Assembly: GCA_051362555.1 (NCBI GenBank)
Contig: CM120641.1
Span: forward strand, 10,106,001 to 10,170,000
Length of the DNA: 64,000 bases
From: Lingula anatina
Lineage: Eukaryota > Animalia > Brachiopoda
Direction: 5' to 3'
In this document: positions 36,973 through 62,200 of the stretch, piece by piece
How the letters are laid out: each line of letters starts with the position of its first letter
Position numbering within the stretch: the stretch's first letter is position 1
Program-made: the position numbers and the translations under genes
The notes under the pieces: model-generated
Told to the model about the DNA's origin: nothing
What the model saw: only the letters and a program-made list of their open reading frames with translations
Database searches by the model: none

Positions 36973-37017
36973 AATAAACGATAGTAATAATTGCTGTTTT
37001 ACTGTCCTGCTTTTATT
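36973..37017. terminator. Candidate convergent polyadenylation signals for TRAK (+) and GHKL-RING (-)
   Basis: AATAAA at 36973-78 on + and TTTATT at 37012-17. The sequence is AT-rich, so chance matches are possible. Confidence 0.35.
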
Positions 37018-38003
37018 TAGTCAGTAGATGAGCAGAAAGGCAATTAATTGTGAGAGGCCCATTGTGGCAGAGATGACTGCATAACACTTCATAATATAAT
37101 GAGTACAAAGTTTTGTCTGAAAACCTTGGTGTATATGGTGAAAGTTTGTTTTAGGTCTGATAGATATGTAAATGGCTTCTGTAACTCAATTTCTACCTTG
37201 GCAAAACAGTGTCTTTCTTTTTTGTCAAATAATCCACTTTTTATATACAGATGCTATCTGTGTCTGTACCTGTACAGACATGCTGTCTGTATTAAGAACA
37301 AGGCCTATAATATATAATAATCAGATGAGATCAAAATTCATCTTTAACTAAATGAAAAAGCTCTTCCCTTCTTTTCAATGCAATGCAACTTTTGTGTTGA
37401 CAGATAAAATGTTATTTCTGATGAAATCTAGCAAACCAAAGCTCTTTCCACAGAAACACGGAATTCCACATTTTTTAATTCAATTATGATGGTTCCTGAG
37501 ATTTGTCAAGATCTGCAATAAAATCTGGGGGGTGGGTCCCATGATAAACATTCAGAGGGTTTTTTTTTTAACCTAGGCTAATGTCTGATCTAGGCATTAA
37601 AATACTTGTTAAGTCATGAATAACAAATACAAGAATAATTTCTTTTAGACACGACCAGTTTTGAATGAAAGCTAAAATGTACATATCAACCTGCACTTCA
37701 ACCAATGTTTAAAACTTAACAGCACACAGTACTGTTTCTTTACTGACAGAGCATTTCCCAAGTTGTACCTTCGTGTAGTACATGTACACATATATAACCT
37801 AAAATTAACCTACGAGCCAGCTTACAAACCATTCCATTTTAAATACATATATAAAAATAAATTTGCAGCCAGCTTACAAACCAATCCATTTCAGATACAC
37901 ACAAAAATAGAAATTGTAAAAATAATATCACATTTAGGAAAATCACAATATGTTAATCTTATATCATTATTGCTGTAAACCCACAGACATGCTGGATGAC
38001 GAT

Positions 38004-41000
38004 TCATTCATAAATCTTCATAACATTGGTCAAATGTCTATTACACACTGGACACACCCTAGTAGTGGTCAGTATGTGGTCAGCACAAGCTGCACAGGCC
38101 TGGTAATGTCCACAAGGCTGGAATGCACAGTCCTTTTTCTTGATTTTACAAATGGAGCACACAAACCTCTGGACCTAAAAAAAGTATAAAGACAAAAGAT
38201 AAATTACTTTATTGATGTTTATCATATAAAGGGATGAATCCCCTTAAAGCAATCTGCACATGTCTGAAAGTTACCAATAGTCACATTTTTATTCTGTAAA
38301 GCCTAATTTTTATATTTTCCACTTCAGACCTTAAAGACGATAAAACCTTTGTGATAAAAGTTGACCTGACACGTATCTAATGAGGTTATCACCTTCTCAG
38401 CCAAGGTGTAGCCATGCCATCTGGCAATTTCAAAAAATGTTTGTTGGATACATGATATAAGGTCAGGCTACAAAACATGTGATGTGAATTGAAAATAATG
38501 CCATGCCTGGTATTGTGAATGTCAGGAAGGCAGAAGCCATTAAACATTAAGAACTAAATCATTGAATTAAAAAATGGAATAAAACATCGAATCCAAGTGC
38601 AGAGACCAATCAAGCAATGAATAGTGACTAGAAGAAATCAATAAGAAAGGGGTTATAAGTGCTTAAATAATATATATTTCAATAAAGTAAGGGGCATTTA
38701 TTTTTGATCGAGTTTAAAATAACATTTTTCTTAATCAATATGAATTATTCACTTAAATATGAAGTTTTTTCTTGCTATCCAGTGCCCCTATGTTAAAGCC
38801 TGCTACTGCACATGCTCTACCTGCAAGTCCTCCATAAGAGTATCACACAGCTGACATAATGTCTCAAACTTCACCTTCTCATGGCTGTTTGCACCTTCAA
38901 GGTTTTCTTTAAATATCTCTTGTAGTGACCTAGTTCTGAAAAGTATTCATTATTTAAATGCAAAAAGTTTATGTTATCACTTTAAAATTATCCCTTTACT
39001 ACAAAAATTAGATATCTAGCTCCTTGTTCTTTTAAGAATATAATTAAAATAACACATTAATAAGTTGAGAAAACCAAAACCATGTTGCTACAGTTTCATT
39101 GAGTTTGACTGGATCTGATTATACCTGTTATTGTGTTCTTCTATCCAGTGTAACACTTCTTCAAACAGTGTTTGCTCCTTTATGTCCATAGCTTGGTGAA
39201 GTTCTTGTAACTGCAGCAAAATTATAATAATATTATAAATTCATTCCATGTTAACCTAAAACCATGAATATATACAAAAAAGAAAAAAAAACACTAGGTT
39301 TCTCAAACAGATATTTATGATGGATAATCTTTAAATTAAAGAGTGTAGTTTTGTTAACGAAAAGAAAGTATAGTTCCTATACTGCATATTTTTCACCCTT
39401 AAAAATACTGAAAGATCTGTAGAAAATAATTCAGATGGGACTTTAAATAAATTACCTTTTTATCAGATTTTTCTCTCTGTTGTTTTTCAAAATTCATGTT
39501 TCTTGCCATTTCCAGGTTATGATCTTCAGCTCTCTTTATCTGTTCCTCTAGCTGCTGGATCTTTCCCTGTTAGATAATTAATTTGGGTACAAGAAAATTA
39601 GAGCAAAATGATTAACTTAATGCATATGATTGGTCTCCTGTGTCATTCATGCTATCAATTAACACAACAATTTTTTGAACTTTTCAAAGGTAAGGGACAA
39701 TGTCAAGGCAGCAGAGCAGTTAAATGTACAGATATAATTAAAAGCAGAAACTAGAAAAGCACTCAGAGAGCAAAGACCTCTGCCAAGGTAACTCAACAAA
39801 CAAACAAACAATCAAACCAAAAACATAATTAATCTCCTTGGCAAAGGAAATAAATAATTTCTCTGTTCTACCCACAAAATCATAAAAATTTTCATTATGT
39901 TGGGAGAAATAATCTTACAGAATCTTGAAAAATAAACAGTAACAGTTTTACTTTACCTTGAGCTTCTTTTCGTAGTCTGCCTTAAGTTGCTGCTCAATAT
40001 TGACTCTCTGTATCTCATCTGACATCTGGTGTTGCTGGAATGTTTGCAGTTCTTGCTGGAGCTTGGTATATTCTACACGATGCTGATCTGAGATCTCTGC
40101 AATTTGTTGCTAGAAAAAAAAAAAACTCTTACAAATCTCAATTTGTCAATAAGTTCATTCCAAGATGGACATAAAACTATCATAACAAAAAGAAAGGTAT
40201 AAAATGTCAAAATAAAATAATTATTTGGAGAACCTGGGCATTGATCCCAGTACCTCTCACATGCTAAGCAAGCGCTCTACCATTTGAGCTAGATCCCCAG
40301 GTGAGATCCCCTACCAAGACTGGAGTGTTTTCCCATCTTTTTTTTTTTTCCCTATATTAATCTTTATTGAGTAGTACTTGCACTTTCCCTGCTTTAGTCT
40401 AGACATTATATAATGTATATCAAACTGTATATGGTAATCACTCTGCGGATTACTTCTTGTATTTGTATTTGATCATGCCCAGATGTAGGGCGATTGTCAA
40501 TAAACTTCTGAATCTGTTGAGTTAATGTATTAGCTGATAATAATGTTTTTGTGTAACTCGATGATTTTGCCAAATAACAAATGCATGATATGTGAATCTT
40601 AAAATATATCACAAATAATATACAAATAAATGACAAAACATATTGGAGAACCTGGGCATTGATCCCAGTACCTCTCACATGCTAAGCGAGCGCTCTACCA
40701 TTTGAGCTAGATCCCCTGATGTATTACCTGCTACTTCACAGGTGTTTCGTTCTCATATCTCGCCTGACTATTACTGATAACAACATAATGAGCTTGTTAT
40801 CTTAACAAGATATGCCATTTGTTTTCCTGAGGGACTCTTATAGCTTCCATCATGCCATATACTCTTAAACAAGTAAACAACCCAAGACTTCATTGTTTTG
40901 GAATCTGTAATTTTTTTTCAACACACACATTCAAAGTGAATAAAGATAATGTATTTTGAGAATGCATTATGGGGTTTTAAGCATGAAAGAAGTGAACAAG

Positions 41001-44000
41001 CCCATGTCCTGTTAAAAATGTACATTGCCCAAACATGTGTATTCTAATGATAACAGCCAAATAGAGTGAAACTGCACTCAAAATTATTATTTGAAGTTCA
41101 AAACACAATTACAGTGTATGAGAAATATATGTACGGTGACTTACTTTAAACTTTTGTGGCAATTTTTTTTCAGTGCTATTTCCACAAACAATGAGTGTAA
41201 TATCTAAATTATTCTCACATCACATGTGGTAATGACTCTATCTTTACAATGGGGTAAATTTTGAATTTTACAGATTCTGTATTTTTTAAGTCATAAATTC
41301 TTAAAATAAAAACATTCCTATTCAGTGGTGGCAGCAATATTGCAAAGGAGGCTACCATATACTATGGTATATGTTCTATTCTATACAGTAAAAGTACTAA
41401 AAACTGCTTCACGGAAATATATTTTTAATGATTCCATAACTATGTATCTAAAAGACTGATAATGTTTCCCCATTGGAAAGATTGAGTCATTGAAATACCC
41501 CTTTTTTTTACTACTCCAGTTACACATGTATGATAAATCAAGATTCCTTTACATGACCAAAAGATGTTTTGAAATAAATTACTCCAGAACAAACTTAAAA
41601 TTTGTTGCTTTTCATTCTTGCTTATCACCAAGACATACAAGTACCTATTTTGGCATGACACACACCATTCATTCATTCATTCATTCATTCATTCATTCAT
41701 TCATTCATAATTAGAATATGGTCCAAGTGTTGCAACAATACTTTTTTCTTTAAATCACATAAGTCACCTCTAATTTTGAAATCTCCTGTTGCAAAAAAGA
41801 TTCCCTCTCTTCACAGATTTTATGGCTTTGTTGTGCAGTCTGATCAGAGGGCATTGCACTGGTATTATGTATCTCTTGGCAAAACTTGGAACTTGACTTT
41901 GCTTGTTCACAAACCTGAAAAAAAAAACAACTAGATGTGTACACACTTCTGTCAAATACAGAATATATAAAAAAGGCAGGCATACATACAGAAAAACCTA
42001 CAAACAACAAGTCCCAATTAATGACAAGGAAGCAGTCAAAAGTACATACACATATAATAGACATAATTCTAAGCAGGAATCAACGTTGACAGTGCACAGA
42101 ATAATATCAAATGATAATTTACAGCAAAATCTAGCTTTTAATTGTATGCTACTGTTAATGTGGTCATTAAGAAAATTTAATTGTTAAAGACCTTAAGGAC
42201 CATGGGAATTTAAAGTCACAACTTGACAATAAGCAAAAAATTCACAAAAAAACTGCATAGCTTCAAGAAAACGGTATAAAAAGATGCTATTTGATCTCAG
42301 TCTGTATTTTGGTGGTATGAATTACCCAAGATTGAGAAAAATAAATCACATGGTTATCTAATGCTGTGGCTGGACATGATAATAGAAAAAGCATTGTCAA
42401 GAAGACCTTCCTACCTCCTGAGACACCTGTGTGAGGACAAACATCAGAGGGTGGTCCATTCTGTATGGCAGATAGCTCTGGAATGCCTGTATATTTTGCA
42501 CTGGTTTAGAAATCATGTCTCTCCTGAGTTGAAGAAAATTGTGACAAAGATGGACTTCTCTACACATGCACTGAAAGGAAAAAAGATGGGGATGTAATCC
42601 TTTGGTTACCTGACTCATGCATATGTATCAATTTGATGGATATAATTAATATAAAATGTCGTCAGGAAAGAAATATAAATAAGACTAAATTCATTTCTGC
42701 ATATATGTATTAATTTTTGGGATTATCTATATCTACTTCACAAAAGAAACTATTAATTCTTTTCTTTCAATATCAAGTCACATAATATATATTTCTACAC
42801 ATATTACCTTAGTGACCTGTGAAGAACATAGTCTACAGACATGGTGTGTTGTCTCAAGATCAAGAAACCATCTTGGCACATCTATAAAGCTCCCATGGCT
42901 TTTACATGGCTGAAAAAAATTAATAAAAAACAGAACCAACAACAACGGAATAAAAACTAAATCAGCTGTTCCAGAACATTTTCATGATATTGATATTTTT
43001 CACCTCATCAATTTTTATTGAATGATTTAATCAACTACTCTTCATTACAGCCAGTTTTACTTTCCTTAAATTTTCATATCATATATACATGTAGCTTTAA
43101 ATTTGATATACCCTCCCAAAAATTAAATGAAACAACTATAATAATATCTTGTTCTCCACAATCTTTTGATAAAAATATCTTTATTTTAAAACGTAAATGT
43201 TAATACATGTACAAGGTATATATTTATCACCTCCAGTACATTCTCAGGATGGTCAACCACAGAGATGCAGGCCAGGCTTAGTGTTGGCTCTGCCATCTGG
43301 GCAAGGCAAACGGCATGTTGCAAGACCTGCCTGTGTTCAGTAGAAAGAGTAGAGAAAGGAATGATAGTTCTGGATGCAGCCCTGTGGACAGCCAAAGCAT
43401 CAACCACACTCATGTGCTGTCCTGACTTGTATAAGATGTCCAACAAAGTCTGGTTGCACAGTACCACCTGTAGAGCAAAGATGTTTCATTTAGTTCTGGT
43501 CAGTCTCAAAATTGAACACGTTTAACGCGGATTACTGAGTTTTTTGAAAAAGAGTCAAAATGCTACAGAAATATACATGTATCTTCCATACTTATGTTAA
43601 AGTGATAGAAACCATGGCAACAGACTGCATATTATTGTATTATATGTACATATTCTAAAAATATCAAAGTCATACCTTTCTCTGCAATTCTTTTTTAATC
43701 ATATCAAGCTCTTCCTCAGTTGCTTGATTACTGACTGGAAAAGCTTCTTCTCCATATTCTCTGGCAATATATTTTTATAGATTTATTATATAAAATGATT
43801 AATTTACATGCCTTAAAAGTTTAAATCTGAACTTTGTGGGCAAGAAATATTTTTGTTTTGCTAATCAATTCAGATTTAAAGGGACAAAAAATAGGATTAA
43901 AAACGCCTTTTTAGTGCATGGATTGCTTCTTTTTTAACTTATCTGAGAACAATTGCTATGGGGAAAGCATAAAATGGCAGGTAAATGGCCTTAATCAATA

Positions 44001-47000
44001 TCGAAAAAAAGAATCATATTCACCGTCCACTTTCGAACCCCGGGCGTCAGCCATCTTGACACAGTTTGAAATAACGCGGCTTCTCGACTCAGATACGAGA
44101 TGTAAACAATGCAGACAGCATGTCGTTTCGAAGGTGAGCGTGGACGTGAAGGAGAAGAGGAATTGCTCACCGAATCTTTGCAGGTAAGCGAGTTATATTT
44201 ACCAAAAGTACTTTAAAATGGGAAGATGGCAGTGGAAATCAAAATGTCTGGCAGAGGAAGTTAAAAAGCGTAGATAACTGCTAATAATTAACGTTTCCTC
44301 GGGTAACGCACTCGCAGCCAAATCACTCGCACTGGATACGTACTACTAGTTATATGAAGCGAGATAGTGCACTTTACCCCTGAGGTGTATAGTTCTGTAA
44401 AGCAGGAGGAATACCCTTTTCTGCTCAATGTGGTCATCTACCAGTACTTACAGACTAACCTCACACCATATTCTCGCAGGGGAATCCCATGAGATATACA
44501 ATGTAACTCGAGTACTAGTGGGGTTAGAGGGTGTTCTTTGTACGGCACGTAACTACGTTAGCTTATTTGTAAATTTAATAATATTGTCAATGAATATGAT
44601 TATAAGGAATGATTTTTTAGCCTTTCAGAGGAGGAATTGGGTGATACACCCCTTCAAGCACGAGTGAAGAGATCAAGTATGTTTATAATTTTAGCAGTAT
44701 AACATGGGCGGATCCAGGATTATTTGAAAGGGGGGGGGGGGTCCGCGGATGCAAAGCCGACCCCCCCTAGTTGGCGTGGGGTCCTGGGCCTGCTTAAAAC
44801 TTTGGTATTTTAGAGGGTGAACAGTGCCATTTGGTATGGTTTAGCACTTTACTGTAGTAAATTAGCTAGTCAAAATTCTAATTCCAAGTGGGGAATATTA
44901 GTGTGATTTTTTTACATCAGTTCTTTGAAACCATGTGTGATTATGTTATTTCTTCTTGTGGCCTTTATGATTTAATGCAGCTGCAGATATTTAAATTTAA
45001 TTTTTTTTTTGCCATAATCAGACTTGCTTCTTTATAATAAGCTGGTTATCATGTAGTGATCATGCCCTCTAATTTGTTGATTTTTGTTAAAGAATAGTGC
45101 TGTTATGATAATATCAATACATTTTTTTCTTTATAACCATTTTATGTAATTTTACTATTACAGTGCCTCAAGTTATGTCTGGAAAACTCATACCAGGAAG
45201 CACTCCAATCTTACAATACTGCATCACTTCAATGTCGGTGTGACAAGTTGTGTAAAAGACTGCTACAAAAAATTTGCAGCGATGACCACATGATCCACCA
45301 CCTTTTACCAAAACCGAGTGAACAGTTTTATATTATAATGCCCATGTACATGTATTTAAAGTGACAAGACTGAGATCAGCGAGAGCCTCAAGGCCTTTAT
45401 TTTCTGTGCATTGTCAACTCTTCAATAATTTTATAATTTTGTCAAATACATCTAAAGATTCAATTCTAATGCAATACTTGAAAACTTTTTTAGAATATAT
45501 TTTAATGTCGAACATGTTTTTCTAAGAACTAGCCCTTTAGTAAATTAACATGTACTATCCAACTGTTATTATTAATTAACATATTGTTATGTAGAGATTA
45601 TGAATGAAATAAAAGTTTAAATATTGAAACATCTTTTATTTATATTTGGCAAAAATACAAGAATAAACAAAGTTTGCTACATAAGTTTGGAATTTGGCCA
45701 AATCATCTTTATTATTACCTGTCACATGTAATGAATAAGACATACACAGATTCTGTAAGCTAGAATGCATAATTATTTTCATACTCATTAATGCCATCTT
45801 CATAAATAAGCCTTCTATTCAAGCATTCACAAACTTTCACATTGTGCAGTACACATTATAGTATGATAACATTTTTGAGAGAGACTTATTAATAGCCAGG
45901 CTATCATGTTAAGAGTCTGATGTACATGCAGACCCATGAGGACTGCAGATCAACAAATTATCCCCCTCTCTGTCAGTGTATTGACTCATGTGAGCTGTCT
46001 CCATGCAAAGGGATGTGTCATAAGAAAGGACCAACCCAACTTACACAAACAAATTGTTTCATCAGTAAGATATTCACACATACTTTTCCAAGATGTGCAG
46101 GGAATAAATAGAAAGGTATAAATATTTCTTTAAAAAATACAGGCATAGCTTCCCTGCATGAATTCTAAATAATGGCTGAGTGGAGAATTGAATACAGGCA
46201 CAAGTGTTCACTCAAACCATTTTTGTAGGTCTTAAAAGAAATGACATGCAGTCATTTGCCAAATACAGAATTTTATGCTGTAACAAAGTCACAAAACTGC
46301 AACTGGTGATCTTACAAAATCTAACAACACACTGGTTTAAAATCAAGTTGAAATCACCAGTACCATATTCCATAATACATTTGATGTCATTTAGATTTAA
46401 GAAGTAAATGCTGGACCAAAATGGTTTATTCTCAATATCAGGCATGTGACTTAGGTTTGGGAGGAAAGACCACCTTGATTTCCAATCTGTCTGCATTATA
46501 GCATACATGTAAGTGCTAGATGGTTTGAAGTCAGCAGATTATGCTTTGTCACATTGGCAAGATGAGTTCACTGAATATATCCTGTAAGCAGCACTCGAAA
46601 GTCAGGAAAAGTCTCTCACTATCCAACTCGTCCCCGCTTTGGACCCTCAAGAAAAGTTCATCTTTTTTTGGTGGAGAGCCATGGAGTTCCTCTTCCATGT
46701 AAAAAACTCTTCTTCAGGACATCATACTGGCAGTTGCTCATAACCTTTAGGTCTAAAAAAGCAAATCAAAATAATAATAATAATAATTTATTAAGATTGC
46801 AACCCAGTGGGTTGAAGTTGTACATAGTGTTAAGAAAATTACAATGAAAATAAAGTGAATATTTGCTTGAATAAAACTGAGTTAAAAGACTGCTAATTGA
46901 ACTTTAAAATTATTGTACTTAGGATAAAAGACAACATAATACTATTGGAAATTTAAAGTGCATACGGAATAAAAGAGCATCAGAATCTGTCGGTCTTAAA

Positions 47001-49745
47001 TTGTGGCACTTTGTTACTATTGTTTGATCTTAAAAGACGATTGGATTGATCAATAAAGATGTGATTCAGTTTGTCAGAGGATTCAGTTATTTTGTAAAAG
47101 AAAGTTTTGCACAGATCTCTTCGTTTATCTAAAGTACACATATGCCAGGTTCAGGGTTTCATCATAGTATAGGTCAGGGAAAATAATCTTCAAAGCACGA
47201 GTTTGGTCAGTCTCTTAGAGTTTGCATTGCTCTATAGTTAGTCCAGGATGCCACACAGGGCAGGCATATTCTAGAATTGAGTGCACAATACTTTGGTAAA
47301 TCTTAGCTCGTTTCAGTTGACGGAGGAAATAGAGTCTTGCATTATGTTTACATTATGTGTTGCCAATTTGGAAAAAAAATTGATAAAAGATAAATCATGC
47401 ACCTATATGCCTAATATATGAGGAGTGAATATCAGTTTATTAAAATTCTGCTTACTCTAAAGACATGTTTAAGTCCCATGTTGGATCATCAGGATCCTTT
47501 AATTCCCTCTTCTTCAGCATCTTCCTCCTCTTCCATCTGCACTTCTTCCAGTTCAGGCATACCATAGGAAAAAGTTACCTTGATACTGCAACCAAAAAAA
47601 AAAAAAAAAAGCAACAGTACATAAAATAAGATAATCGAGTTTGAGAAAAATTATGTAAAAACATAACTGAAATAAGTATAAAACTCAACTGAAATAAGTA
47701 TAAATGCCATTTTTCTCAATATGATCACCTTAAATTATCTAGACTGTCATCTTCAACTGCACTAGTATTAACTACAGTACAACTTAATTTTGAAGTTTCT
47801 TGATCACTTCATATTGGTTTAATCTCCGAAATACTGGTTGGAAGTTAAAATTGTATGATCTAAATTATTACTCTGGACTATTTAATACATGAGAGATATG
47901 TACCAAACATAAACATGCAATATCCCCTTTTTGATTTATTTATTTTTAATGTAAAAAGGAGACAAATTGTCTTTAAAATATAATATCAAAATACTACTAT
48001 TTATTTTCACTTATAGTTGACATGCCATTTAACATTGGGTTAAACTTAGATACAATAACAGCTTCTGCACATTCATTTTGGGATTTAGATGCCTAAAGAA
48101 ATAGCATCTTTGTCATATGTCTTAATTACTGTGGTATGCCTAGATGTTAGAGGCACAAGAAATGTGCCCTCGGTAAGTCAAAAATTCGCCCTGGTCATTG
48201 TAATGTATATGTAATGAGACTAGTATCTCCCACCATGTCCGTTTTTATTTAAACTTTCTTTGCTCTATAAACTAACCCAAACCCTGTCAGAGTCGACATA
48301 TGAGCAACACTTGCAATTTCTGTCATCGATACCACTCATATTAGTTACAATTTCATGGCATATTTTGACAGACGAGCCTGACAATCGTTAAGATACACAA
48401 CGAACACACGTAAATAAACATAAATCTCTGTGCTTAATAAATATTTTCACTGGTGTCTTATCTCAAAGATAATTGTAAATGGTACTCACAAATCCAGTAA
48501 ATACTTCGCGGCCAGGCCATTCTTCGTATCCATGGCCACCCAAGCAGGTTTTCATCTGCCTTCTTCCTCGCCGGTGTTTATTGTTTGCCTGTCGTACATT
48601 TGCTGATACACTGTTTTACGCATGTTTTTTGTAAAGGCTGTTTCTTTTTTCTTTTTGTTATCTGTCTTCGCTTCTTCGAAGGACTCCCAGCATAACTGAG
48701 CCTCCTGTTTCACGTTGTCCTTTCCCGGCAGCTTGAACTGGTTTTAACTAGGTCGCAATACGAGAATCTCGCGAGATCCGGAAGTCTAGAGAGCTCAATT
48801 ATGAAAATGGAGGTGGTTGTTGGTAAACCTCCGCTTAAGCGGAGGTTTTCTTTTTATTGTATTTTCCAAAAATGTTACAGAGCGATGGCGAGTGCCGGGA
48901 ATGATAGATTAAAGGTTGGTAAATCGCGGAAAAGTAGTGTTAACCTCGGGATAAATCAGGATAAATCAATTTTGGCGCGAAAATCCTCTTTTGTGTCCTT
49001 TTAAGCGATACAAGAACAACAATATTTAGTTAAAACAACAACATGGTAATTTTGTGTCTTTGCTTGGGAAAAATTTTGGAGAACCTGGGCATTGATCCCA
49101 GTACCTCTCACATGCTAAGCGAGCGCTCTACCATTTGAGCTAGATCCCCTCATAGAGTAACCAGGAATATAACAGCTTTAGGTTCCTAGTTTGCATGACT
49201 TAAAATAATTACATAGTCAAAGGGCTAAGATGAACTATCCAGTAAATGTTATTACTTTTAACATGGCATTTTCCTTTTCATGTTTGGTTGAACACTAAAT
49301 TCAATTTATCTTTATCATATCTTTCGGGACAAATGACTTTAAGACTACATGTAAGTCATTAAACAGTTTGATTCCACTCATCTGTTACATGTGTTAATGT
49401 GTCAATATTCAATCATGTATACAATGTACACATAAGTTCATATCTCAAGCAATGAGAGGGGAGGGCAGGTTAACTGAGGAACAATATGGTTATATGTACC
49501 TCAGCATGACCAATTCTAGTACATTTAAATGTACCAGTATACATAATAGATTTATAAATTGTCTTCTACAAATAGTTGGTCTAAAGCAATTTCAATTAAA
49601 ACAGTGCTGGATGTGGCCTTTTACAGGTACTTACAGAGAAAATAGATTAGCCATCAACAGGGCCACATTGGAACTGGTATACTGACAAGCATGACGGACA
49701 TCTCGATGTTTGCTACACACAATACAAATAACAGTGATAACCGAA

Positions 49746-49797
<52 letters not shown>

Positions 49798-52793
49798 GTG
49801 TACATGTATATAATTAGCATAGAATACAACCTTACATACCAAAATCTTAGATCTGATAAAACTTAATACTAACTGCTGATACCAACAATTTATCAATTTC
49901 AGGTCTGCAAAACAAAGACTGAAAGCAATGGTATTACATCAAAGGTAGATTGACTTATGTAATACTTCTACCAGGTTTAACTTACTCATCCTTCAACAGG
50001 TGATAGTATTGCTGTGCTTTAGATGGATCCTTTTCAAGTACTTTGATCCACATGCAGCTTACCTGAAAACAATGCAGAAAAAAGATCAACTAAGCAGGCA
50101 CACTATAACAGTGGTTCCTACAGAGTTATAGTAAATACTGTTCAGGAATATTGGTCAAAAACTTTTTCACTCGTTTCTATTAAGTTGTGCTAATTCTCAG
50201 TTCTGTCTATATATTTAATTTGCCTCCATTGCTTCAATATCACGCAAAGTAATATATCATTATTATCATATAAAAAACTGTACCAGATGATCTATTTCAC
50301 TGGGCTTTGGTACTGCATTCCTGTCTCTGTCTATCTGTAGAGATATGAAGTCCACCCCAGATGACAGGTCCTCTTCTGTGAGGTCAGACACCCACACTCC
50401 TTTCACATACAACTGGCCAGAATTCACAGGGTCTAGTAACAATGTGCCTGGAACAAATTGGTAAAAATAATGAATAAGCATGGAGAAAGTTAAATTGTAT
50501 CTTAATGTCACTTTTCGGGCAGCTGACGTGATTTCCAGGAAGTAATTAAAAGTTATATTTTGTCAAATGACAAAGCAGTAACAGTTATTATTGTGAACAT
50601 ACAATCAGTTATTATGAAAAAAAATGTGAATGATAATTGAAGAGTTAAAAACTCACCTAATTCTGTTTTCACACAATTCACTGGGGGCTTCAGGAACAGA
50701 AATTTATCAACCTGAAGAATATAAGATAAATCTTTATGACAATTGTTCACTTGCAATCACTGTAGCCTAAGAGTTTCTAATCATTCGAACAGTCCAACTT
50801 CAGGGCCCCGTATCTCGAAAGCATCGCGCATTGCGACCATGCGCAAGCGTCTCGATTCCATAACTCGCCCATACTCATCCCATATAATACATTGTAGCCT
50901 ATTTAATATAGCTATTTGCAATATGCGATGTTTTCGAGATACAGTAAAGTGAACTATTTGAAAAGACATGTCTGCCACTGATGGTTTGTTTATACATTTT
51001 TTAGTAATTAAAAGATCAATGCTATTTGGACATTATACAATAAAACTCTGAAAAAAATTAACACTTACACATTGTTTCCACTCCTCTTCCTTCAGATGAA
51101 CAGTTGTGCATGTATCTGCTGCATCCAATTCAAAATTACTGCAGTAAATAATTTAGCGAAATAAGAATTTCAAACTTTTCAACTTTAAAATAAAAAATCT
51201 AGACAGATAGCATGGTGAATATTTAAGATTAAAACTAAAATAATGCCAACTTTTATCTTTCATTGTGTTATATTCTATTTCTACATTGTTAAAAATACCT
51301 CAAAGGATGGTTTTGGTTGGGTCCTGTCCTTCCTGGAAAAATAGGGAGAACAAAGAATTATAACTCTTTTGAAAGCACTCTGTTTAAGTACTGTACCTGG
51401 AGAACATTTCAGAAAATTAGGCAGTCTCAATTTCCTTTCTGGTTGTCTATTCTAACAGAATATATTCATTAGTAAAATCAGACATCAGATATACATGTAC
51501 CTATGGGTAAATCACTTTTTCAAATACAGTACATACCGTACCTGTAACATATACTGCTAAAACCTTTTCTTGAAAGTTAGGATCTTCTTGAAGATCAAAT
51601 CTCCATCTATCCTTATTTGTTTCCATAGTGACTAAGCGACCTTCACGAACTAAAGCTAGAGCACCAACTTTTAAACCCTCGCCAAACTGTCCTATAGTTT
51701 CTTTTTTATTGGCTTTATTGCTGTATCCCATCAAAAGAATCCTTTTATGCAGTGCAATGTGTCTGTTCACCATCTGCAGACGGCTGTTCACTCTGTCATA
51801 GCATAGCAATCCCAGCTGGTGCCTCTTGCCATCCTTAGGATGTTCTGCATAGGCTTCATAGATATCACAAAAATTTGCTTGTTTTGGCTGAAGGAAAAGA
51901 AGGAAAATTTTTAAGTGGAAACTGAGATAATACAGAACATCAAGGTCCATTGTCAAACAAAAACTCTGAATGTGAGTATGAGGTGTGAAGGTAAGGTGAA
52001 TTACCTTTAATAACATTGAATCTTAATTGCCTGTAACTCAAGTACAGTGAAAGACATATCATACACAATCCCTCTTGGTGTTACATGTGCATATGTAGCA
52101 TCAATGTGTAATTCTGGGGCCGTAGCGATAGTCCGAAGGTTCAATAGTCCGAAGGTTCATTGGTCCGAATGTTCACTATACTAGTAGAACCTTCGGACCA
52201 ATGAACCCTTGATTAAAAAATCGATGAAAATGTTACCACTTTTCGGACCAATGAACCTTCGGACCAATGAACCCTTGATTAAAAAATCGATGAAAATGTT
52301 ACCACTTTTCGGACCAATGAACCTTCGGACCAATGAACCTTCGGACTATCGAGACGCCCCCGTAATTCTAAGGGAAGGAGGTTGGAAATCTTACTTTATG
52401 AACGGAATAAGGTTTTATATTTCAGTGAGAAAGGTGGAAGATGGAGGGGAGGGGGGTACAGGTGGGGTCAGATTACAAAGCAGACCAGGGAGCGAGCGGG
52501 CTGAACTTTTGGGTGGGTTAATTGTTTGCTTTACAGCAAGTCCTACATGTAAGTACTAAAATCTTATAGATTTGATGTGACCTTTTTCAACATTATCAGG
52601 GCTCTACCTCTGAAAATTGTACGACTGGGTCCGATGAAACAGGGAAGTCCAGCTTGTCTGCAGTTTGGTAGACACCATCATGCCAGTTCTGGACAAGTTC
52701 TCGTACCCCTTCCCACATTTTCCACGTACTTGCATAGTTGGCTGTCAAAGTTAGAGAAATTGACTTAAAAGTCACGTCTATTGGATATGCCAT
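38004..52793 (-). CDS. GHKL (HATPase_c-like) ATPase - His/Cys motif - coiled coil - C3HC4 RING protein, ~790 aa. Exons (high to low): 52793-52608, 51887-51542, 51332-51299, 51138-51069, 50711-50657, 50447-50284, 50062-49986, 49712-49635, 43760-43676, 43467-43231, 42909-42808, 42570-42415, 41914-41768, 40109-39957, 39566-39456, 39210-39125, 38935-38821, 38174-38004
   Basis: 18 exons with GT-AG junctions in consistent phase, 2373 nt, no internal stop. GHKL motifs RELVQNWHDG and IGQFGEGLKVG. Q/E/K-rich heptads in exons 41914-38821. RING CSIC...PCGHYQACAAC...CPVC at the C-terminus. Confidence 0.85.
39750..39852. mobile_element. Minimal Helentron/DINE-like non-autonomous remnant
   Basis: ACTAGAAAAGCACTCAGAGAG start; inverted CTCTGCCAAGG / CCTTGGCAAAGG; (CAAA)n inside. 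Confidence 0.5.
40226..40298 (-). tRNA. tRNA-Ala(AGC), variant copy with one anticodon-stem C>T
   Basis: GGGGATCTAGCTCAAATGGTAGAGCGCTTGCTTAGCATGTGAGAGGTACTGGGATCAATGCCCAGGTTCTCCA; 73 nt, G3:U70 identity pair, anticodon AGC. Confidence 0.85.
40644..40716 (-). tRNA. tRNA-Ala(AGC)
   Basis: GGGGATCTAGCTCAAATGGTAGAGCGCTCGCTTAGCATGTGAGAGGTACTGGGATCAATGCCCAGGTTCTCCA; cloverleaf, G3:U70, T4 run shortly downstream. Confidence 0.92.
41667..41708 (+). repeat. (ATTC)n microsatellite
   Basis: Directly visible. Confidence 0.95.
44024..44110. promoter_or_regulatory. CpG-rich, possibly bidirectional promoter with a YY1-like motif (CAAGATGGC on the minus strand)
   Basis: GCCATCTTG at 44050-58, locally high CpG, ATG-plus-donor exon candidates leaving in both directions. 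Confidence 0.45.
44109..45613 (+). pseudogene. Spliced relic of the second transposon gene (KolX-like) or derived lncRNA (exons 44109-44183, ~44621/44629-44676, 45164-~45613)
   Basis: ATG exon MQTACRFEGERGREGEEELLTESLQ with donor CAG|GTAAGC; acceptors TTTCAG and TTACAG; AATAAA at 45608. No continuous ORF across the exons. Confidence 0.4.
45164..45430 (+). mobile_element. Degenerate CR1/L2-clade LINE ORF2 C-terminal fragment
   Basis: Translates CLKLCLENSYQEALQSYNTASLQCRCDKLCKRLLQKICSDDHMIHHLLPKP, like the post-RT tail of CR1/L2 elements. Confidence 0.6.
46500..48690 (-). pseudogene. Frameshifted relic of the N-terminal part of a Kolobok-like transposase gene (exons ~48690-48490, 47585-47456, 46752-~46500)
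   Basis: Intact GT-AG sites but stops and frameshifts. Fragments QTINTGEEEGR*...AAKYLLDF, DPDDPTWD and ERLFLTFECCLQDIF resemble motifs I recall from this transposase group (RINIG..F.RW...A.FLLD; KFIVFESCL.ELF). No DDE core visible. Confidence 0.55.
46768..47420 (-). mobile_element. 5'-truncated CR1/L2-clade LINE
   Basis: LYFLRQLKRAK..YQSIVHSILEYACPVWHPGLT..RALKIIFPDL..KTDRF..SFIPYAL with stops, followed by AATAAA and an (ATT)n tail at ~46790-46768. Confidence 0.85.
48767..48785. promoter_or_regulatory. TCTCGCGAGA palindrome (BANP/CGCG element) next to an ETS site CCGGAAGT
   Basis: Exact motifs in a CpG-retaining patch just upstream of the minus-strand relic exon 1. Confidence 0.6.
49077..49149 (-). 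tRNA. tRNA-Ala(AGC)
   Basis: Identical to the copy at 40644-40716, followed by a T5 Pol III terminator. Confidence 0.92.
49746..49797 (+). repeat. (ATT)n microsatellite
   Basis: Directly visible. Confidence 0.95.
50803..50944. mobile_element. Short TIR element (possibly Harbinger-like MITE)
   Basis: GTATCTCGAAAGCATCGC / GCGATGTTTTCGAGATAC inverted ends; CpG-rich relative to the flanks. Confidence 0.6.
52116..52361. mobile_element. MITE with 15-bp subterminal repeats, an internal ~66-bp duplication and an 8-9 bp target-site duplication
   Basis: GGGGC..CGATAGTCCGAAGGTTC / GAACCTTCGGACTATCG..GCCCC, flanked by GTAATTCT at 52108-15 and 52362-69. Confidence 0.85.
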
Positions 52794-54002
52794 AGCTTCA
52801 ATATGTCACTTAAACTAATTTTGAATGGAAGACGAACAGGTTCCATTTGGCCTCATTGATTTGACGGAAGACATCAAATATTTGTCTGCTATCAAGAAAA
52901 GCTACACTTTAACATGATTTATGTGCCACTAAAACGAGTAACTCATTATTCCATTAACTGAAAACAATGAAAAAAATTATGACAAAACGGACATATTTAC
53001 ACAAATTTAGATTGTTTTCCAATATATTTAGTTAAATTTTGGGGACCTAGTGGGGCTTATCTTGAAACGTTGACAGCAGATTTGGTGCATATTTCTCCGC
53101 CTATCACATCCGAGGTTAGTATGGAGCTTGCGGAATAAGCCGAGGATTGCCGATTGCAGTAGGTGTAGGTATATCACAATCCGCTAGGGGCGCAACAGTC
53201 GTAACTGTCCAGTGGCAGTGAAGTGTAAAACTGAAGTCGGCCTGCTGACAGCTCGCCTATGGCACCCCTTTTTTAAATCTCTCTTTTAGCGCCGCGTAAA
53301 AAAACTAATACAAGCCATTAACTAAATAAGCTGTAAATCAAAGAGTAAAATCCGGTCACGTGATTTTCCCGTGTTGCAGTCTTTGAGAAGTTTCAGTTCA
53401 GGGTGTTTGAAGTTTTGCCTCGACAAAATGCTCAAAAATGTCAGGGAAGTACTGGTTTCAGTTTTTTAAAATTTATATCGAATAAAGTTTATGAAATTTG
53501 CAATATTATGTAAAAAAAATCATGAAAATTAAACCATGCGAAGTATAGTTTATTTGATGCGCAATATTTATAGTGCTTGATCTGCACGGAAGCCATCCCA
53601 GCCATGTGCTTGTGCGGTCGCCAATTTGGGTTTGTTTCCGGGTCATTAGATTAACATACAGCCATAATTGCCCTAATTGGTCACAAGCAATTTTAGCTGC
53701 AGCTACCGCTGAGTGATCACCGCTGGTCAGTAGTGACAGGTTTTAAGCTGAAAAGTGTGGACACTTTTGGTGCATTTTTGCAGTTAAAAAACTTCAATAT
53801 CTTTGTTGCTTGTAGGAATATTAAAAAAATTCCAAGTGATTTCATCCGGTTTTTGCATTACCTTTCAGATGATATAAGTATTATAATTTTCTGATCAGTT
53901 TGAAAATTTTTCTGATATACCTAGTAGGTGGATAGTAGATGGATGTTAGCCAAAAAGTAGCAGAGAATTATCAACGTAGGTCCTGAAGTATAGTGCAATA
54001 AA

Positions 54003-56257: not shown

Positions 56258-59200
56258 TTAGGCATATTCATCTTTCAATGAACCATAACGTAAAGTAAAA
56301 GAAGCATAATTTGCCTGGCCCAGTTTTTCTCCTGCTCTGTAACTACCAAATAAAAACTTTCCAAAATCTGTACTTTTGAACCTCTGAAAAAGAGATGGCT
56401 TGTCTTCCTCAACACTTTGAAACTCAAAGCTGGCCACCTCAGGATCAATGGGCACCATCAGTTTTCGCCTAGAATACACTGTGTATCCTATGGCTGCTGC
56501 GATGATGAAAATCACCATTAGTGCAAATAATATAGGAACAAACTGGTTGACGGGCTTATAGTCTGGAAGGAAAATATCACAAATATCAATTCAGGCTGTC
56601 ATCTGGTGAGAATATCTCAAAATGAAATGATTATAAAAATAATTCTCATCCAAATGAACTGCGCAAGACTACCTAAATATGTGATTAAATACACTGTAAT
56701 TTTATAGTCCTGTGAAAAATGGTGCATGAAAGGCACAAATAACATATTTCATCATTCTACATTTAATCAAGTAAAATGTATACATACCAGGGGCATCCAC
56801 TTGAAGTGTATAATTACCACTCGTCACACTAACTTCATTTGATACAGTGAAATTCATCATATATTTGCCTCCTTGGTGAAAAACAATATTCAGCAGAGAA
56901 ACATCAAGTGTACACGTCTCCAAATTAGATGCTTGGTAGCAAGTGTTATTATCATCTCCTTTGTGTGCACAGATAGTTATATTCAGTGGAACACTGAAAA
57001 TATAGGGAAAAGACAAAATATTGTCACATTCATGTTTTACTATGGTGATATTAAGCATCAAAAATTGACAAGGAAGCACATATTTTTAAAAGTAATTAAA
57101 ACTAGAGGATCAGAGAGGCGATACCGCCTCCGGATATTGTACCACCAGCTGGAGTAAGCGCATTTGTATGCCCCCCCCCCCTCCTAAAAGGGACACCATC
57201 ACCAGTCTTGTGTTTGACAAGCTCTATAAGATGCAATCAACAAGAGTTCTCAAAATATGCAAAAAAATATAACTAAAAATGGTACAATCAAGCAGATTTT
57301 CGAATTGACTTGCATTTTCCTACCCTTGATCACTACTGTATTCTCTAGACAAAAGGCCTATTGGTTTTCCTTGAAATGTGTTGTCAATGGTGCATATATG
57401 CTGACAAAAGAGAAAACCTAGGGGAAACATGGGCACATCTCTGCTAGTTTTAAAGATATGAGAGGCAAGAAAATATGCAAAGCTAAGTTCATGGTGAAAA
57501 AGTAGGTCAAAGGTCAATTTCAATATCATAGTATATGAATTTCTATTCAAGTTCCATAGCAACCATGGGCATTTCTTTGCCAATTTTGCAGATTTAAAGG
57601 CCAGAAAACATGCAAAAGTAGGTCAAAGGTCAATTTCAAGGTCACAGATTGCTAGTGTATTACTTCCTATTCAAGTTCAATAGTAACTATGGACCTATCT
57701 CTGTCAGTTTTGAAGATAAAGGTGAGCAAAAATTTGCTAAGTTCAGTTCATAGTAAAAGGAAGGTCAAAGGTCAATTTCAAGGTCACATTTAGATTGCCA
57801 GTATATGACTTTCTATTCAAGTTCAATAGTAACTACGGACCTATCTCAGCCAGTTTTGGAGATAAAAGGAATGCAAAATTTGCAAAGTTCAATTCATGGT
57901 GAAAAGTAGGTCAAAGGTCAATTTCAAGGTCACATTTGGATTGCCAGTATATGACTTCCTATTCAAGTTCAATAGTGACTATGGACCTATCTCTGCCAGT
58001 TTTGGAGATAAAAGGGAAAGAAAATCTGCAAAGTTCAATTCATGATGAAAAGTAGGTCAAAGGTCAATTTCAAGGTCACACTTAGATTGCCAGTATATGA
58101 CTTCCTATTCAAGTTCAATAGTAACTATGGACCTATCTCTGCCAGTTTTGGAGATATAAGGGAACAAAATTTTGTAAACTTCAATTCATGGTGAAAAGTA
58201 GGTCAAAGGTCAATTTTAAGGTCACAATAAATTGCCTCTAATGACTTTCTATTCAAATTCAATAGTAACTATGGGTGTATCTTTGCCAGTTTTGCAGATA
58301 AAAGGGAACAAAAATTTGCAAAGTTCAGTTCATGGTAAAAAGTAGGTCAAAGGTCAAATTTAAGGTCACAGTAAATTGTCAGTATATGACTTCCTATTCA
58401 AATTCAATAGTGACTATAGACCTATCTCTGCCAGTTTTGGAGATAAAAGGGAAAGAAAATTGTCAAAGTTCAATTCATGGTGAAAAGTAGGTCAAAGGTC
58501 AATTTTAAGGTCACTGTTAAATTGCCAGTATGCGACTTCCTATTCAACTTTAACAGAAACTATGGACCTATCTCTGCCAGTTTTGGAATTATAAGGGAAC
58601 GAAAATTGGTAAACTTCAATTCATGATGAAAAGTAGGTCAAATGTCAATTTCAAGATCAGAGTAAATTGCCTCTAATGACTTCCTATTCAAGCTCAATTG
58701 TAACTATGGACCTATCTCTGCCAGTTTTGGAGATTAAACGGAACCAAAATTTGCAGTGTTAAGTTCATGGTAAAAAGTAGGTCAAAGGTCAATTTCAAGG
58801 TCACACTTAGATAGCCAGTATATGACTTCCTATTCAACTTTAATAGTAACTATTGACCTATCTCTGCCAGTTTTGGAGATAAAAGGGAACAAAAATTTGC
58901 AAAGTTCAGTTCATGGTGAAAAGTAGGTCAAAGGTCAATTTCAAGGTCACATCTAGATTGCAAGTAAATGACTTCCTATTCAACTTAAATAATAACTATT
59001 GACCTATCTCTGCCAGTTTTGGAGATATAAGGGACTAAATGTTACAATTCTGAGTTACATATTTTATGGCCGCTACTCCCGTGAAAATGCACTGATTGAC
59101 CCCAAATTCATGGAGATGAAAGATGACCCAAAGGGTAACACTTTCCAATATAATTATTGGTTAAGTCTGTGTAGTGTCTGAATAACAGTGCAAATAATAT

Positions 59201-62200
59201 TTTTTTTCGTAAAAAATTTCATTTTTTTTGAAAATTTTGGCCCATTTGACCTTGAAATAAAGGTCAAAGATCTAATCCAAGGGCATATTTGAAATCTACA
59301 CATATGACTTTTGGAAAGCCGTCTGTAGAAAATTTTCCCATAATTCCTTCCGTAGGGTAGATAATTGGCATTGAATTTTTAAAAATTTTGACAAGGGTGC
59401 ATTTCAACTAGCGTCACGCCCAGGTCAATGCACCGACTGAGACAAAAAAACCTGGGGGTTCAAGTTGAGGTTATATGTGACCTAAATCCAAGAGATGGGG
59501 ACAGGGGTCATTGCGGTCTAGGAGGAGAAGCGGTAACGGTGACTTGTATCCGGCGCCAGTACGCGGAGCCGGCGGAGCTTACGGAGCCGGCGGAGCCAAC
59601 GGAGCCGGCGGAGCCGGACGAGACGGGTCGGGACTAAAACCATGAGTATCGCCAGCGTACACGCTGGTGGTACTAACAACACAAATAAACAGCTAGTTAC
59701 TACTAAATAAGTAGTAAGAATGTGTCTTTTAATAAGTCTTAAAACAGAGCTAATGAAGGTGTCTAGTGTTTTAAGTGTACCACATACTTGTTGAGGGTGA
59801 AAGGAACAGGTCTTTCTATAGAGGCAAATGTTAAAACAACACTAGTCTCACCTTCCAGTACACGTTATCTTTCCAGAAAGCTTCTGTTCTGTCAAGAGAA
59901 TAGTGTCTAACTTCAAATCCAGGTTTCCAACAGCATCTGCAAATATAGGTGGTTATTTTATCAAATTCTTCTCATTTATTCTATATTTTGTCTGAAAATT
60001 GAATCAACAGGCAGGATACAGAATAATCTTCCTTTGCATTCTTCTTAAAAATGCTACACACTAAGAGCAAAGTATGTCAAAATTCAGCTTTATTCCAATA
60101 GTAATCTTTAAGCACATTTGGCCATTTTTTACTCAAACTGATATATATTAACATATTGTCAAAAAGAAATAACCCTAGAAAGATGATATTGCAGTTTTCT
60201 CATCAAACCGTCCAGCGGTCATTTGGACAACTGCCAGCACCACAGGATGGTCTATATTTTCAAAGACGGCTGGACGGCTTAAGGATTTTTTAAAAATATG
60301 ATGGCTTTGGGCATATTTTTGTAGGAAATAACAGGTGGTAATTTTGGATGACCTGTACCCCCAATCCTGGGAAAAGCCCTGTACTGCATTAAAAATAAAC
60401 TTCAGCTATCTAAAATTTGTAAGCAGCAGGAAAAATTACCTTTTAATACAAGGGACTTATTTGTCAACTTTGTCTTCACCATTTGTGTACTGTTTGTGTC
60501 ATTCAACATCATCACAACAGTTGTATTCAGAGTCATGAGCTGCTTTCCTGAACTTGTAAATATGTATGTGAAATTATTGTTTTTTTCATTGTCTTCATCT
60601 TTGTATATGCTAACCTCAGGATTCCAGTGGTAGAAATAAGACATGTTCAGTATTTCCGGATTAGTAAAATTGTCCAATGCCTTGGCATAAAATGTTACGT
60701 TTGTCCCTGTGGCAAAAGTTGTTCCATTATTCAGTTTAGATTTAACCTTCTGAGAAATTAATACATTGACATTGAGGAATTCTGAAATTAAAAAAGAATT
60801 TACATATATGAATGTAAACATCAACAAAGGATTGTAATGGAATGCGATATCAATCAAAAATAAAATAAGTGAGTTGCATCTGTAAAATCATAATGACTAA
60901 TAACCTAAATAACTAAGGGCAACATCTGGATTACTATATGTGTGGGTTAATTCCAATCAGGTTATCTAGAACTATGCACTGATAAAATCTAAAGTACAGG
61001 GCAACCTATTATTTTAATGTTATCTAGGCTACACACAATGCTGAACACAGTGTAAGAGTTTTGCATTGTTGTGGCTCTGTTTCTAATTTCAACAACCAGG
61101 GCTATGCAAGAAGTGGTAATAGTTCGAGATAAGCTCTTGGAATTTGTACAGCTTTGATGTCTTATATTAATTAAATGACAATGAACTTGTTTTCAGTGGC
61201 AGACATACTAAAATCAACCCTTTACATTATATATGAATGGAATCATATATAACACAAACATATAACGGTTCTTGATGATCTTGATGATTATAAAAATTCT
61301 TCTTAAATACTATTGTAATTTTGCAAAGGACCATTTATTAAATGACAACAGACAAATCAAACTAAAACGATGTCAATAGATTGCTTTACAAATAATAATA
61401 ACTACTATCTGTTTGAAAAAAAAAAACAAAAACAGGCAAATTTATAAACTTACATTTCATCCTGTAAAGAACTTACCTGTAATAGTAAATGATGTATAGT
61501 TTTGAGCAATAAGGGTATCATTAGTACCAACTTTCCGAGGCTTGTAAACCTGTACAGTCATATTATATGTTCCCGGTATAACATCAGGATTCCCAAAATA
61601 ATCTCTATAAAAAGAAAATCTTTTTCTTCTCTGTATTGGGTGGACAGTTTTGTCTGCTCCATCAGTCCATATATATTGAAAATAGGTTGGTTCTTTATCT
61701 GGGCTGTGATGAAGATTCACCAGATCAACATAAAATATTAGGGTTGAATCAAGAACTCCTATCTGGGTGCAACTGAGATGGAGTTCATAATCTGAAAAGA
61801 AAATAATATTCAGTGCTACTGGTTCTTCATTATGTATGTTTCTGATATTCATAATGCACACTTGATTAACTACATTTTAAAATATGTGTGTGAGGGGGAA
61901 TGGTATATGTGTACTGTATATTCATTAATTTTTTAGTCTGAGAAAAAATGTTTTTCCTATTTCAAAAGAGACTGTCACTTGCAACTTAGACCCAAAATCC
62001 AATACAAATACATTTGAAGTCCTACTGTGTCTGTCTGATTAAGTATGGTGCTACATGTATCTATGCCATCTATGATAAAAAAAATTGTCCATTACAACCC
62101 CGGTGTGCAATCACTAGGGCTTTTAACTTTATATATATGGCAGTGGTTGTTACAACAGTGGTTTGCTTTTTAATCATAACTACTACATGGTCTTCTGTGA

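Follow-up and report, generated by a model that had tools for sequence, protein, structure and literature searches.

A 64,000-nt stretch of the genome of the brachiopod Lingula anatina (CM120641.1), here called the window and used for the numbering of all positions below, carries on its minus strand (38004..52793) one spliced, expressed gene coding for a single protein of 790 residues. The protein joins known parts in a new arrangement: a GHKL (Bergerat) ATPase with a transducer, a connector, a predicted dead Wss1-like protease domain, a long coiled coil and a C-terminal RING. It represents a real, ancient and apparently undescribed eukaryotic family whose nearest relatives, by sequence comparison, are proteins of large phages. 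On balance we lean towards the view that these proteins are dimeric ATP-driven clamps that capture a protein client and ubiquitylate it.

A single spliced and expressed gene

The gene consists of 18 exons, which from high to low positions on the minus strand are 52793-52608, 51887-51542, 51332-51299, 51138-51069, 50711-50657, 50447-50284, 50062-49986, 49712-49635, 43760-43676, 43467-43231, 42909-42808, 42570-42415, 41914-41768, 40109-39957, 39566-39456, 39210-39125, 38935-38821 and 38174-38004. An initial annotation, made from the sequence alone, had proposed an in-frame gene of 18 exons and about 790 residues. This was borne out: all 17 introns are GT-AG, the spliced length of 2373 nt equals 790 residues plus a stop with no internal stops, and the peptide motifs quoted in that annotation (6/6) were located on the minus strand between 52763 and 50334.

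Intron 8, at 5874 nt, separates the two halves of the gene and contains further transcription units, and the possibility that two genes had been wrongly merged therefore had to be excluded. Reads from four RNA runs (X12, X15, X16 and X18) were mapped onto 41720-49060, where the junctions of introns 8-13 could be tested, and all six have RNA support, with the whole gene spanned by no single read. Introns 9, 10, 11 and 12 appear as read joints in 9, 6, 21 and 23 reads of X12 and in 2, 2, 4 and 8 reads of X18. Among the loose read ends listed for X18, five reads join exon 9 to exon 8 (27/30 letters match) and ten join exon 13 to exon 14 (30/30). The RNA signal of the stranded run X12 lies on the gene's own strand, and depth in exon bins is about 3-14 in X12, 1-6 in X18, below 1 in X16 and 0 in X15. 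Over its full length the spliced protein can also be aligned with proteins annotated as one chain, which are 24-40% identical to it (Haliotis 40%, Mizuhopecten 38%, Oculina 33%, Ptychodera 33%, Oopsacas 30%), and these alignments are continuous over the exon 8/9 junction. With reads joining exons 8 and 9 and orthologues that are full-length single proteins, the earlier claim that the ATPase and RING halves lie on one transcript is supported. An artefact, in which the gene model merged two adjacent genes or a contaminant, could be argued from the 5.9 kb of intron 8 and the two other transcripts and tRNA gene inside it. It is largely refuted by the reads across exons 8/9 and 13/14, by full-length single proteins in many species (some from transcriptomes) and by an ordinary animal setting next to a TRAK/Milton gene, and we give it next to no chance.

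The N-terminal ATPase and transducer

Structural modelling supports a Bergerat/GHKL fold followed by a transducer in the N-terminal half. The ATPase comprises aa 10-215 (exons 1-5; 50703..52766, minus strand), as delimited by a match to phrog_6077, by residue conservation and by a model of the abalone orthologue (794 aa; 40% identical to the Lingula protein). The transducer, of the Hsp90 middle/S5-like type, is placed at aa 216-310 (49988..50702, minus) from its fold match and conservation, and is the most conserved region, with 35-72% identity to 11 named orthologues. A connector of helical and alpha/beta structure follows at aa 311-398 (43369..49987, minus); it spans intron 8, whose junction is covered by the five reads mentioned above, and is homologous to the phage proteins discussed below.

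Exons 1, 2 and 6 match phrog_6077 collinearly (E 4.6e-8, 2.5e-19 and 0.0084), and exon 2 matches Pfam HATPase_c_3 weakly (E 0.061). One PDB sequence search returned weak matches to MORC, topoisomerase VI-B and TRAP1 (E 0.025-1.3), and no family in Pfam, NCBIfam or PADLOC matched the N-terminal 500 residues above cut-off. The abalone model (predicted local distance difference test, pLDDT, 86.4; predicted template modelling score, pTM, 0.62 for the full model) matches GRP94 (Z 13.8; root-mean-square deviation, rmsd, 5.0; 249 aligned), TRAP1 (Z 13.3) and topoisomerase II (Z 11.5), with MORC also among the best, and its GHKL match has a Foldseek E of 1.5e-9. These matches agree with the fold named in the initial annotation, and its view that the protein is not an orthologue of HSP90, MutL, topoisomerase, MORC or sacsin is supported as well.

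Since Hsp90-family proteins are the top fold matches, and most named animals have a single copy, the protein could be pictured as a self-contained chaperone-plus-ligase for general quality control, like Hsp90 and CHIP in one chain. We regard this as very unlikely, as the match, at 10-18% identity, does not extend beyond the ATPase and a portion of the middle domain, there is no relationship in the client-binding C-terminal part, and expression is absent in 1/4 RNA runs.

Residues were counted over 146 rows (27 eukaryotic, 89 large-phage-type and 30 short phage). The ATPase motifs, all on the minus strand, are the strap residue Tyr20, the N-box E32/N36/D39 (52700-52677) and the lid and G2 box, G116/K120 and G128xxGxG133xK135 (51692-51669); the transducer adds a D270-R-D-R273 loop (50331-50320). 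N36, D39, G116, K120, G128, G133 and R273 are invariant in all 146 rows, and E32 is kept in 26/27 eukaryotic, 87/89 large-phage-type and 30/30 short phage rows. Within the eukaryotic rows the ExxxNxxD of the N-box is present as E32 in 26/27 and as N36 and D39 in 27/27 each, and G116, K120, G128, G131, G133 and K135 of the lid/G2 box are found in 27/27. R273 is likely the gamma-phosphate arginine.

The nucleotide site and a predicted dimer

While the GHKL motifs claimed in the initial annotation stand for the N-box, lid and G2 box, it had overlooked that the Asp of the G1 box is replaced by Asn103 (51767-51765, minus). The DxGxG expected of family members is thus absent: Asn103, aligned to the MORC Asp by a weak match (E 0.025), is found in 27/27 eukaryotic rows, the corresponding residue is Asn, Thr or Ser in 89/89 large-phage-type rows and Ser in 30/30 short rows, and the Asp is retained by 7/8 outgroup proteins.

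Two copies of abalone residues 1-400 were predicted together with ATP/Mg. The predicted dimer scored 0.76 against 0.33 for the best of three controls, contacts agreed at least 95% between runs, and pLDDT was at least 85. The mark used for a dimer was reached by 21/30 solved homodimers and 0/23 monomers from microbes, and by 17/29 and 0/30 from eukaryotes; because GHKL dimers have already been solved, the pass may reflect memory of those structures. The predicted interface is formed by the N-terminal strap (7-16, with a near-invariant Tyr), the lid (105-113 and 125-127) and the DRDR loop (271-273), as expected for a closed GHKL gate. On this model the ATPase is predicted to dimerise, with the Tyr-bearing strap reaching the lid of the partner.

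A predicted Wss1-like pseudo-protease

The region between the ATPase and the coiled coil (aa 399-500; 42505..43368, minus) is predicted to be a dead Wss1-like protease domain, a call made through the fold of a phage homologue and profile alignment. The C-terminal domain of the phage protein has the fold of yeast Wss1 (Z 10.6, rmsd 2.8, 105 aligned) and of SPRTN (Z 8.4), and the eukaryotic and phage profiles align with an hhalign probability of 100% over 388 columns at 30% identity, extending into the pseudo-protease domain. The abalone model keeps the element order of the phage model through the shared region and then continues into a 160-residue helix and the RING. The mini-zincin fold is thus seen for the phage homologue, and for the animal domain it is suggested by the profile alignment and the abalone model. 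An ESM Atlas search with the pseudo-protease part returned nothing above 0.81. Unlike Wss1 and SPRTN, the eukaryotic protein has no HExxH, and we know of no Wss1 or SPRTN protein with a GHKL ATPase.

The HExxH motif is present in 83/89 phage-type and 8/8 outgroup proteins and in 0/30 eukaryotic proteins. As phage and cellular relatives both carry it, its loss in eukaryotes is likely derived. Directly before the helix that bears HExxH in the phage proteins, the eukaryotic proteins have an insertion with a eukaryote-specific cluster, H466/C472/C479/C481 (42846-42562, minus), kept in 24, 24, 24 and 23 of the 27 eukaryotic rows, respectively. This cluster is likely a new structural zinc site. The initial annotation gave the order as ATPase, coiled coil and RING; all three are present, and it had passed over the pseudo-protease with its His/Cys3 cluster between ATPase and coil.

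Coiled coil and RING

The coiled coil covers about aa 561-735 (38172..41824, minus). In the abalone model residues 553-711 form one helix of about 160 residues, coiled-coil structures were matched, and E/Q/K/R make up 43-50% of 30-aa windows over aa 571-720. The RING, of the IAP/MDM2/IDOL-type C3HC4 class, occupies aa 736-790 (38004..38171, minus), and exon 18 matches Pfam zf-C3HC4_3 (PF13920) at E 3.6e-11, with 43 bits against a cut-off of 27. The 60 rows listed in another PDB sequence search contain only RINGs, headed by cIAP2, cIAP1, XIAP and MGRN1, and the RING fold matches of the abalone model are MEX3C, IDOL, MDM2 and BIRC7. The Pfam match and the modelled helix confirm the C-terminal RING and coiled coil that had been annotated.

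The eight zinc ligands (C740, C743, C755, H757, C761, C764, C775 and C778) are kept in 49/49 family members and the aromatic tail residue (Tyr789 in Lingula) in 48/49; the linchpin is Arg in 39/49 and Lys in 5/49. IAP-type RINGs have been described as requiring both dimerisation and a tail Phe/Tyr (PMC6349121). With the RINGs of IAP, MDM2, IDOL and MGRN1 the Lingula protein shares the RING-HC, a 12-13-residue tail with Phe/Tyr and a preceding helix; it differs from them in having no BIR, FERM or p53-binding part and a putative GHKL clamp upstream instead. The database name of a sponge family member, 'Baculoviral IAP repeat-containing protein 7', reflects the RING only.

Relatives in large phages and mobile elements

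A profile search over 1.84 billion proteins gave 639 matches at E<=1e-30; among the best 150, which were inspected, the tier directly below the eukaryotes is made up of proteins of about 435 aa. Sequence comparison supports these large-phage GHKL-HExxH proteins, of the phrog_6077/MPN635_N type, as the nearest relatives, where PF25856 (MPN635_N) assignments come from precomputed labels. The ESM Atlas ties the ATPase domain to MPN635_N clusters (features 0.97), the label being carried by 23-78% of top-cluster members, mostly Uroviricota. On IMG/VR contigs 140 relatives were found and 80 kept, one of them on a complete 407-kb genome, and cultured phages have a shorter form of 360-400 aa that lacks the protease (77 records). 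A model of a phage homologue (pLDDT 96.5) matches TRAP1 (Z 12.8), T6 topoisomerase (Z 12.2) and MORC2 (Z 11.6) over the GHKL domain and transducer. The phage form is homologous over about 460 residues, sharing the ATPase, the non-Asp G1 position, the DRDR loop, the connector and the zincin-type domain, whereas eukaryotes lack HExxH and add the His/Cys3 cluster, coiled coil and RING; the phrog_6077 family is itself uncharacterised, and the literature search for MPN635 turned up a lone mention in one paper. The closest proteins had been expected among uncharacterised bacterial, phage and fungal ones; they are indeed uncharacterised and microbial, chiefly from large phages, and no fungal protein is among the named matches. 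One bacterial member of 808 aa (L090:2709-5132) has an apparent second GHKL module before HExxH.

Neighbours at 12 large-phage loci include DnaB, integrase, thymidine kinase, RlaP, PcfJ, TROVE/Ro60 (2/12 loci) and ADP-ribosylglycohydrolase (2/12); RlaP and TROVE have been described as jumbo-phage RNA-repair genes (PMC7824862). Giant eukaryotic viruses were considered as nearest relatives and rejected, no such marker being present among the 25 Pfam-matched neighbour open reading frames (ORFs). A scan of 185,579 prokaryotic genomes, limited by the pattern used, yielded 10 more distant loci in mobile-element-like settings. The anticipated defence islands did not appear: none was recognisable at the 12 large-phage loci (25/114 neighbour ORFs with a Pfam match) or at the 10 cellular loci (67 ORFs), and there was no conserved operon. 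The prokaryotic homologues examined sit in phage or mobile-element regions instead.

At 4/10 of the cellular loci a gene for RadC, LexA, RuvB, RNase H, UvrD or the beta-clamp lies nearby, which would suit a genome-maintenance factor that clamps on DNA, senses DNA-protein crosslinks or trapped proteins through its Wss1-like fold and directs them by its RING to the proteasome. Wss1 is also the best non-GHKL match of the phage domain, and MutL, MORC and topoisomerases, likewise matched, clamp DNA. Fold likeness, however, proves no function, such neighbours are common in mobile elements, those at the large-phage loci are mixed, and frequent loss is ill-suited to a core repair gene; we consider this reading unlikely.

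Distribution and origin of the family

The family is found in sponges (Oopsacas, Corticium, Dysidea, Oscarella), a coral (Oculina), gastropods, bivalves, three hemichordates, lancelets and many metagenome proteins. The patchy animal distribution described in the initial annotation is therefore real but not animal-specific, as the amoeba Stenamoeba and the stramenopiles Platysulcus and Florenciella carry the family too. None of 75 eukaryote-type rows bears the name of a vertebrate, arthropod, nematode, echinoderm, fungus or land plant, which is weak evidence of absence because the search was seed-limited and most rows are nameless. Most named animals have a single copy; tandem paralogues occur in hemichordates, with four Glandiceps and three Ptychodera proteins, each set on one scaffold. 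Two further eukaryote-type proteins, P0190 (N-terminal RING) and P0310 (B-box and coiled coil, TRIM-like), carry the same ATPase in separate ubiquitin-type fusions.

Eukaryotic rows are monophyletic in a tree that contains 39 of them (39/39), with a support of 99 in the Shimodaira-Hasegawa-like approximate likelihood ratio test, used for all tree supports here, and under a mixture model (22/22, support 98); a motif filter removed 4/8 outgroup rows from the first tree. In the tree with 39 eukaryotic rows animals sort roughly by phylum, and the Lingula protein falls among bilaterians (98). A single eukaryotic clade with phylum-like sorting points to an ancient family with one old origin and many losses rather than a recent transfer into Lingula.

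The ancestor of the family was likely a zinc protease under ATP control, carried by phages and mobile elements. Free trees place the eukaryotes within the phage rows, but a monophyletic phage group is not rejected by the approximately unbiased (AU) test (p 0.655; the constrained tree scored higher; 41/61 rows). Eukaryotes may thus be sister to the phage proteins or nested within them, and a phage donor is not proven.

Two observations concern gene structure in other animals. In coral-like and glass-sponge-like contigs (P0009, P0020, P0027, P0032, P0034 and others like them) the first ~500 residues form one uninterrupted ORF, and the Lingula gene has 11 introns over this part; early animals may have had few introns in the phage-like part. 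In P0328 (Argopecten) a 20-residue unit containing DRDR occurs about 18 times, at an exon boundary that corresponds to intron 6 of the Lingula gene, and is probably a tandem array or a mis-annotation.

Comparison with known systems

Tiamat offers a parallel, with a GHKL domain, a transducer Arg, a Wss1-like fold without HExxH and an effector (bioRxiv 2026.09.30.754977), and that paper does not mention a RING. Sacsin has a GHKL domain, a transducer Arg and an Asn at the Hsp90 Asp79 position, as in the Lingula protein. A separate precedent for a GHKL-RING protein is the uncharacterised Arabidopsis AT5G23110, reported to have three sacsin repeats and a C3HC4 RING of PF13920 (bioRxiv 2026.09.30.755639). 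The Lingula protein is 790 aa long, compared with 1500-4700 aa for Tiamat, NO VEIN and sacsin. Pfam scans of seven full-length members matched no DUF3684/TPR solenoid, PD-(D/E)xK nuclease or full sacsin repeat, and the abalone model has no solenoid. TmtA/sacsin models matched about 65 ATPase residues of the phage homologues below cut-off and did not match the animal protein. RNF213/mysterin, a nucleotide-driven motor fused to an E3 (ubiquitin ligase) module in cell-autonomous defence, would be a functional analogy; it differs in having an AAA+ motor, about 5000 aa and an unrelated fold. A full-text literature search, with subscription papers outside its scope, found no description of the family, in keeping with the initial annotation's statement that it knew of no named gene with this architecture; the supplementary domain tables of the Tiamat paper may list such proteins.

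Proposed mechanism and role

The initial annotation proposed an ATP-gated ubiquitin ligase, possibly with a role in defence; both ideas stand as hypotheses. We infer a working cycle for the putative dimeric clamp built from GHKL domain, dead protease, coil and IAP-type RING. ATP binding would shut the N-terminal gate of the dimer, and the pseudo-protease, stiffened by the new His/Cys3 zinc site, would hold the client without cutting it. The coiled coil would pair two RINGs, so that the aromatic tail could prime E2~ubiquitin in trans, as in cIAP1 (PMC6349121). The client would then be ubiquitylated, and hydrolysis would reopen the clamp. In evolutionary terms, an early eukaryote would have exchanged cutting for ubiquitin tagging.

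Several points weigh against this proposal. Yeast Hsp90 no longer binds ATP when it carries D79N (PMC2132952), and the GxG after the G1 residue is lost in the eukaryotic rows, which makes ATP use uncertain. The RING linchpin of the Lingula protein is Asn779 rather than Arg (Asn in 2/49 members). Wss1 is missing from the 50 best matches of the whole 794-aa abalone model, so that the assignment as a pseudo-protease depends on the phage homologue. Any coupling between the putative ATPase and the RING would, as modelled, have to cross the 160-residue coil. Scans of seven full-length members found no TIR, LRR or death domains.

The G1 substitution, present in all eukaryotic and phage rows, together with the effect of D79N on Hsp90 (PMC2132952), also raises the alternative of a constitutive RING ligase. 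Its GHKL domain would be a nucleotide-binding dimer scaffold or would bind a nucleotide different from ATP (a 6-oxo purine, e.g., GTP, could be recognised by Asn103), and the coiled coil could dimerise the RINGs unaided. Sacsin shares the Asn at the Asp79 position in 3/3 repeats, where it is modelled as preserving the adenine contact (PMC9880540), so the eukaryotic site may still use ATP; and over the 146 rows there is almost no or no variation at the catalytic Glu, Mg-binding Asn, lid Lys and transducer Arg. We therefore find a scaffold or non-ATP enzyme quite improbable, and keep the ATP-driven clamp as the preferred reading.

Most likely the protein serves, at times of infection or stress, to clear away a protein complex that is foreign or damaged. 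Among particular roles, defence comes first, though short of an even chance; general proteostasis is a lesser possibility, and the repair of DNA-protein crosslinks is a little less probable still. Defence is favoured by indirect hints, namely patchy retention, the hemichordate tandem copies, the N-terminal RING and B-box fusions and the Tiamat parallel, and the unequal expression between runs (3-14 in X12, 0 in X15) was counted among them. More tentatively, and in its full form rather doubtfully, a phage ATP-gated protease may have been disabled, its pocket rebuilt round zinc and the whole wired to a dimeric RING, giving a new class of GHKL-gated E3 that would serve innate defence in animals from sponges to lancelets and in protists, and that possibly uses a nucleotide other than ATP.

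Genomic surroundings

A TRAK/Milton gene with HAP1_N and Milton domains lies on the plus strand at about 9500-35400, tail to tail with the ATPase-RING gene. Within intron 8, an antisense spliced transcript (43925-45593, plus strand) has joints near 44183-44621 and 44675-45163; it is about 10 times deeper than the host exons in X12 and is also seen in X15, a run in which the host gene is silent. With short ORFs only and no Rfam match, it is likely a long non-coding RNA. A second nested transcript (about 48800-45640, minus, the host strand) is expressed in X12, X15 and X16 and has exon-like acidic stretches at 48743-48490, 47574-47455 and 46750-45640, with no Pfam match above cut-off. The gene also harbours, on the minus strand, three near-identical tRNA-Ala(AGC) genes, of which intron 8 contains one and intron 13 the other two, and an Rfam search over 37000-54000 found tRNAs only. 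A multi-exon gene at 56261-63600 (minus) likely encodes a single-pass membrane protein, with no Pfam match in the four exons tested, and one of its introns contains a 146-bp tandem array (57437-59040).

Conclusions

The nearest relatives of this eukaryotic family are phage proteins and not bacterial defence genes, which suggests that "clamp and cut" gave way in evolution to "clamp and ubiquitylate". Gating of the ligase by ATP, if it occurs, would be a new mode of E3 control. As a compact, confidently predicted protein with clear residues to mutate, the Lingula protein makes these ideas directly testable, and such work would give phrog_6077/MPN635_N its first function.

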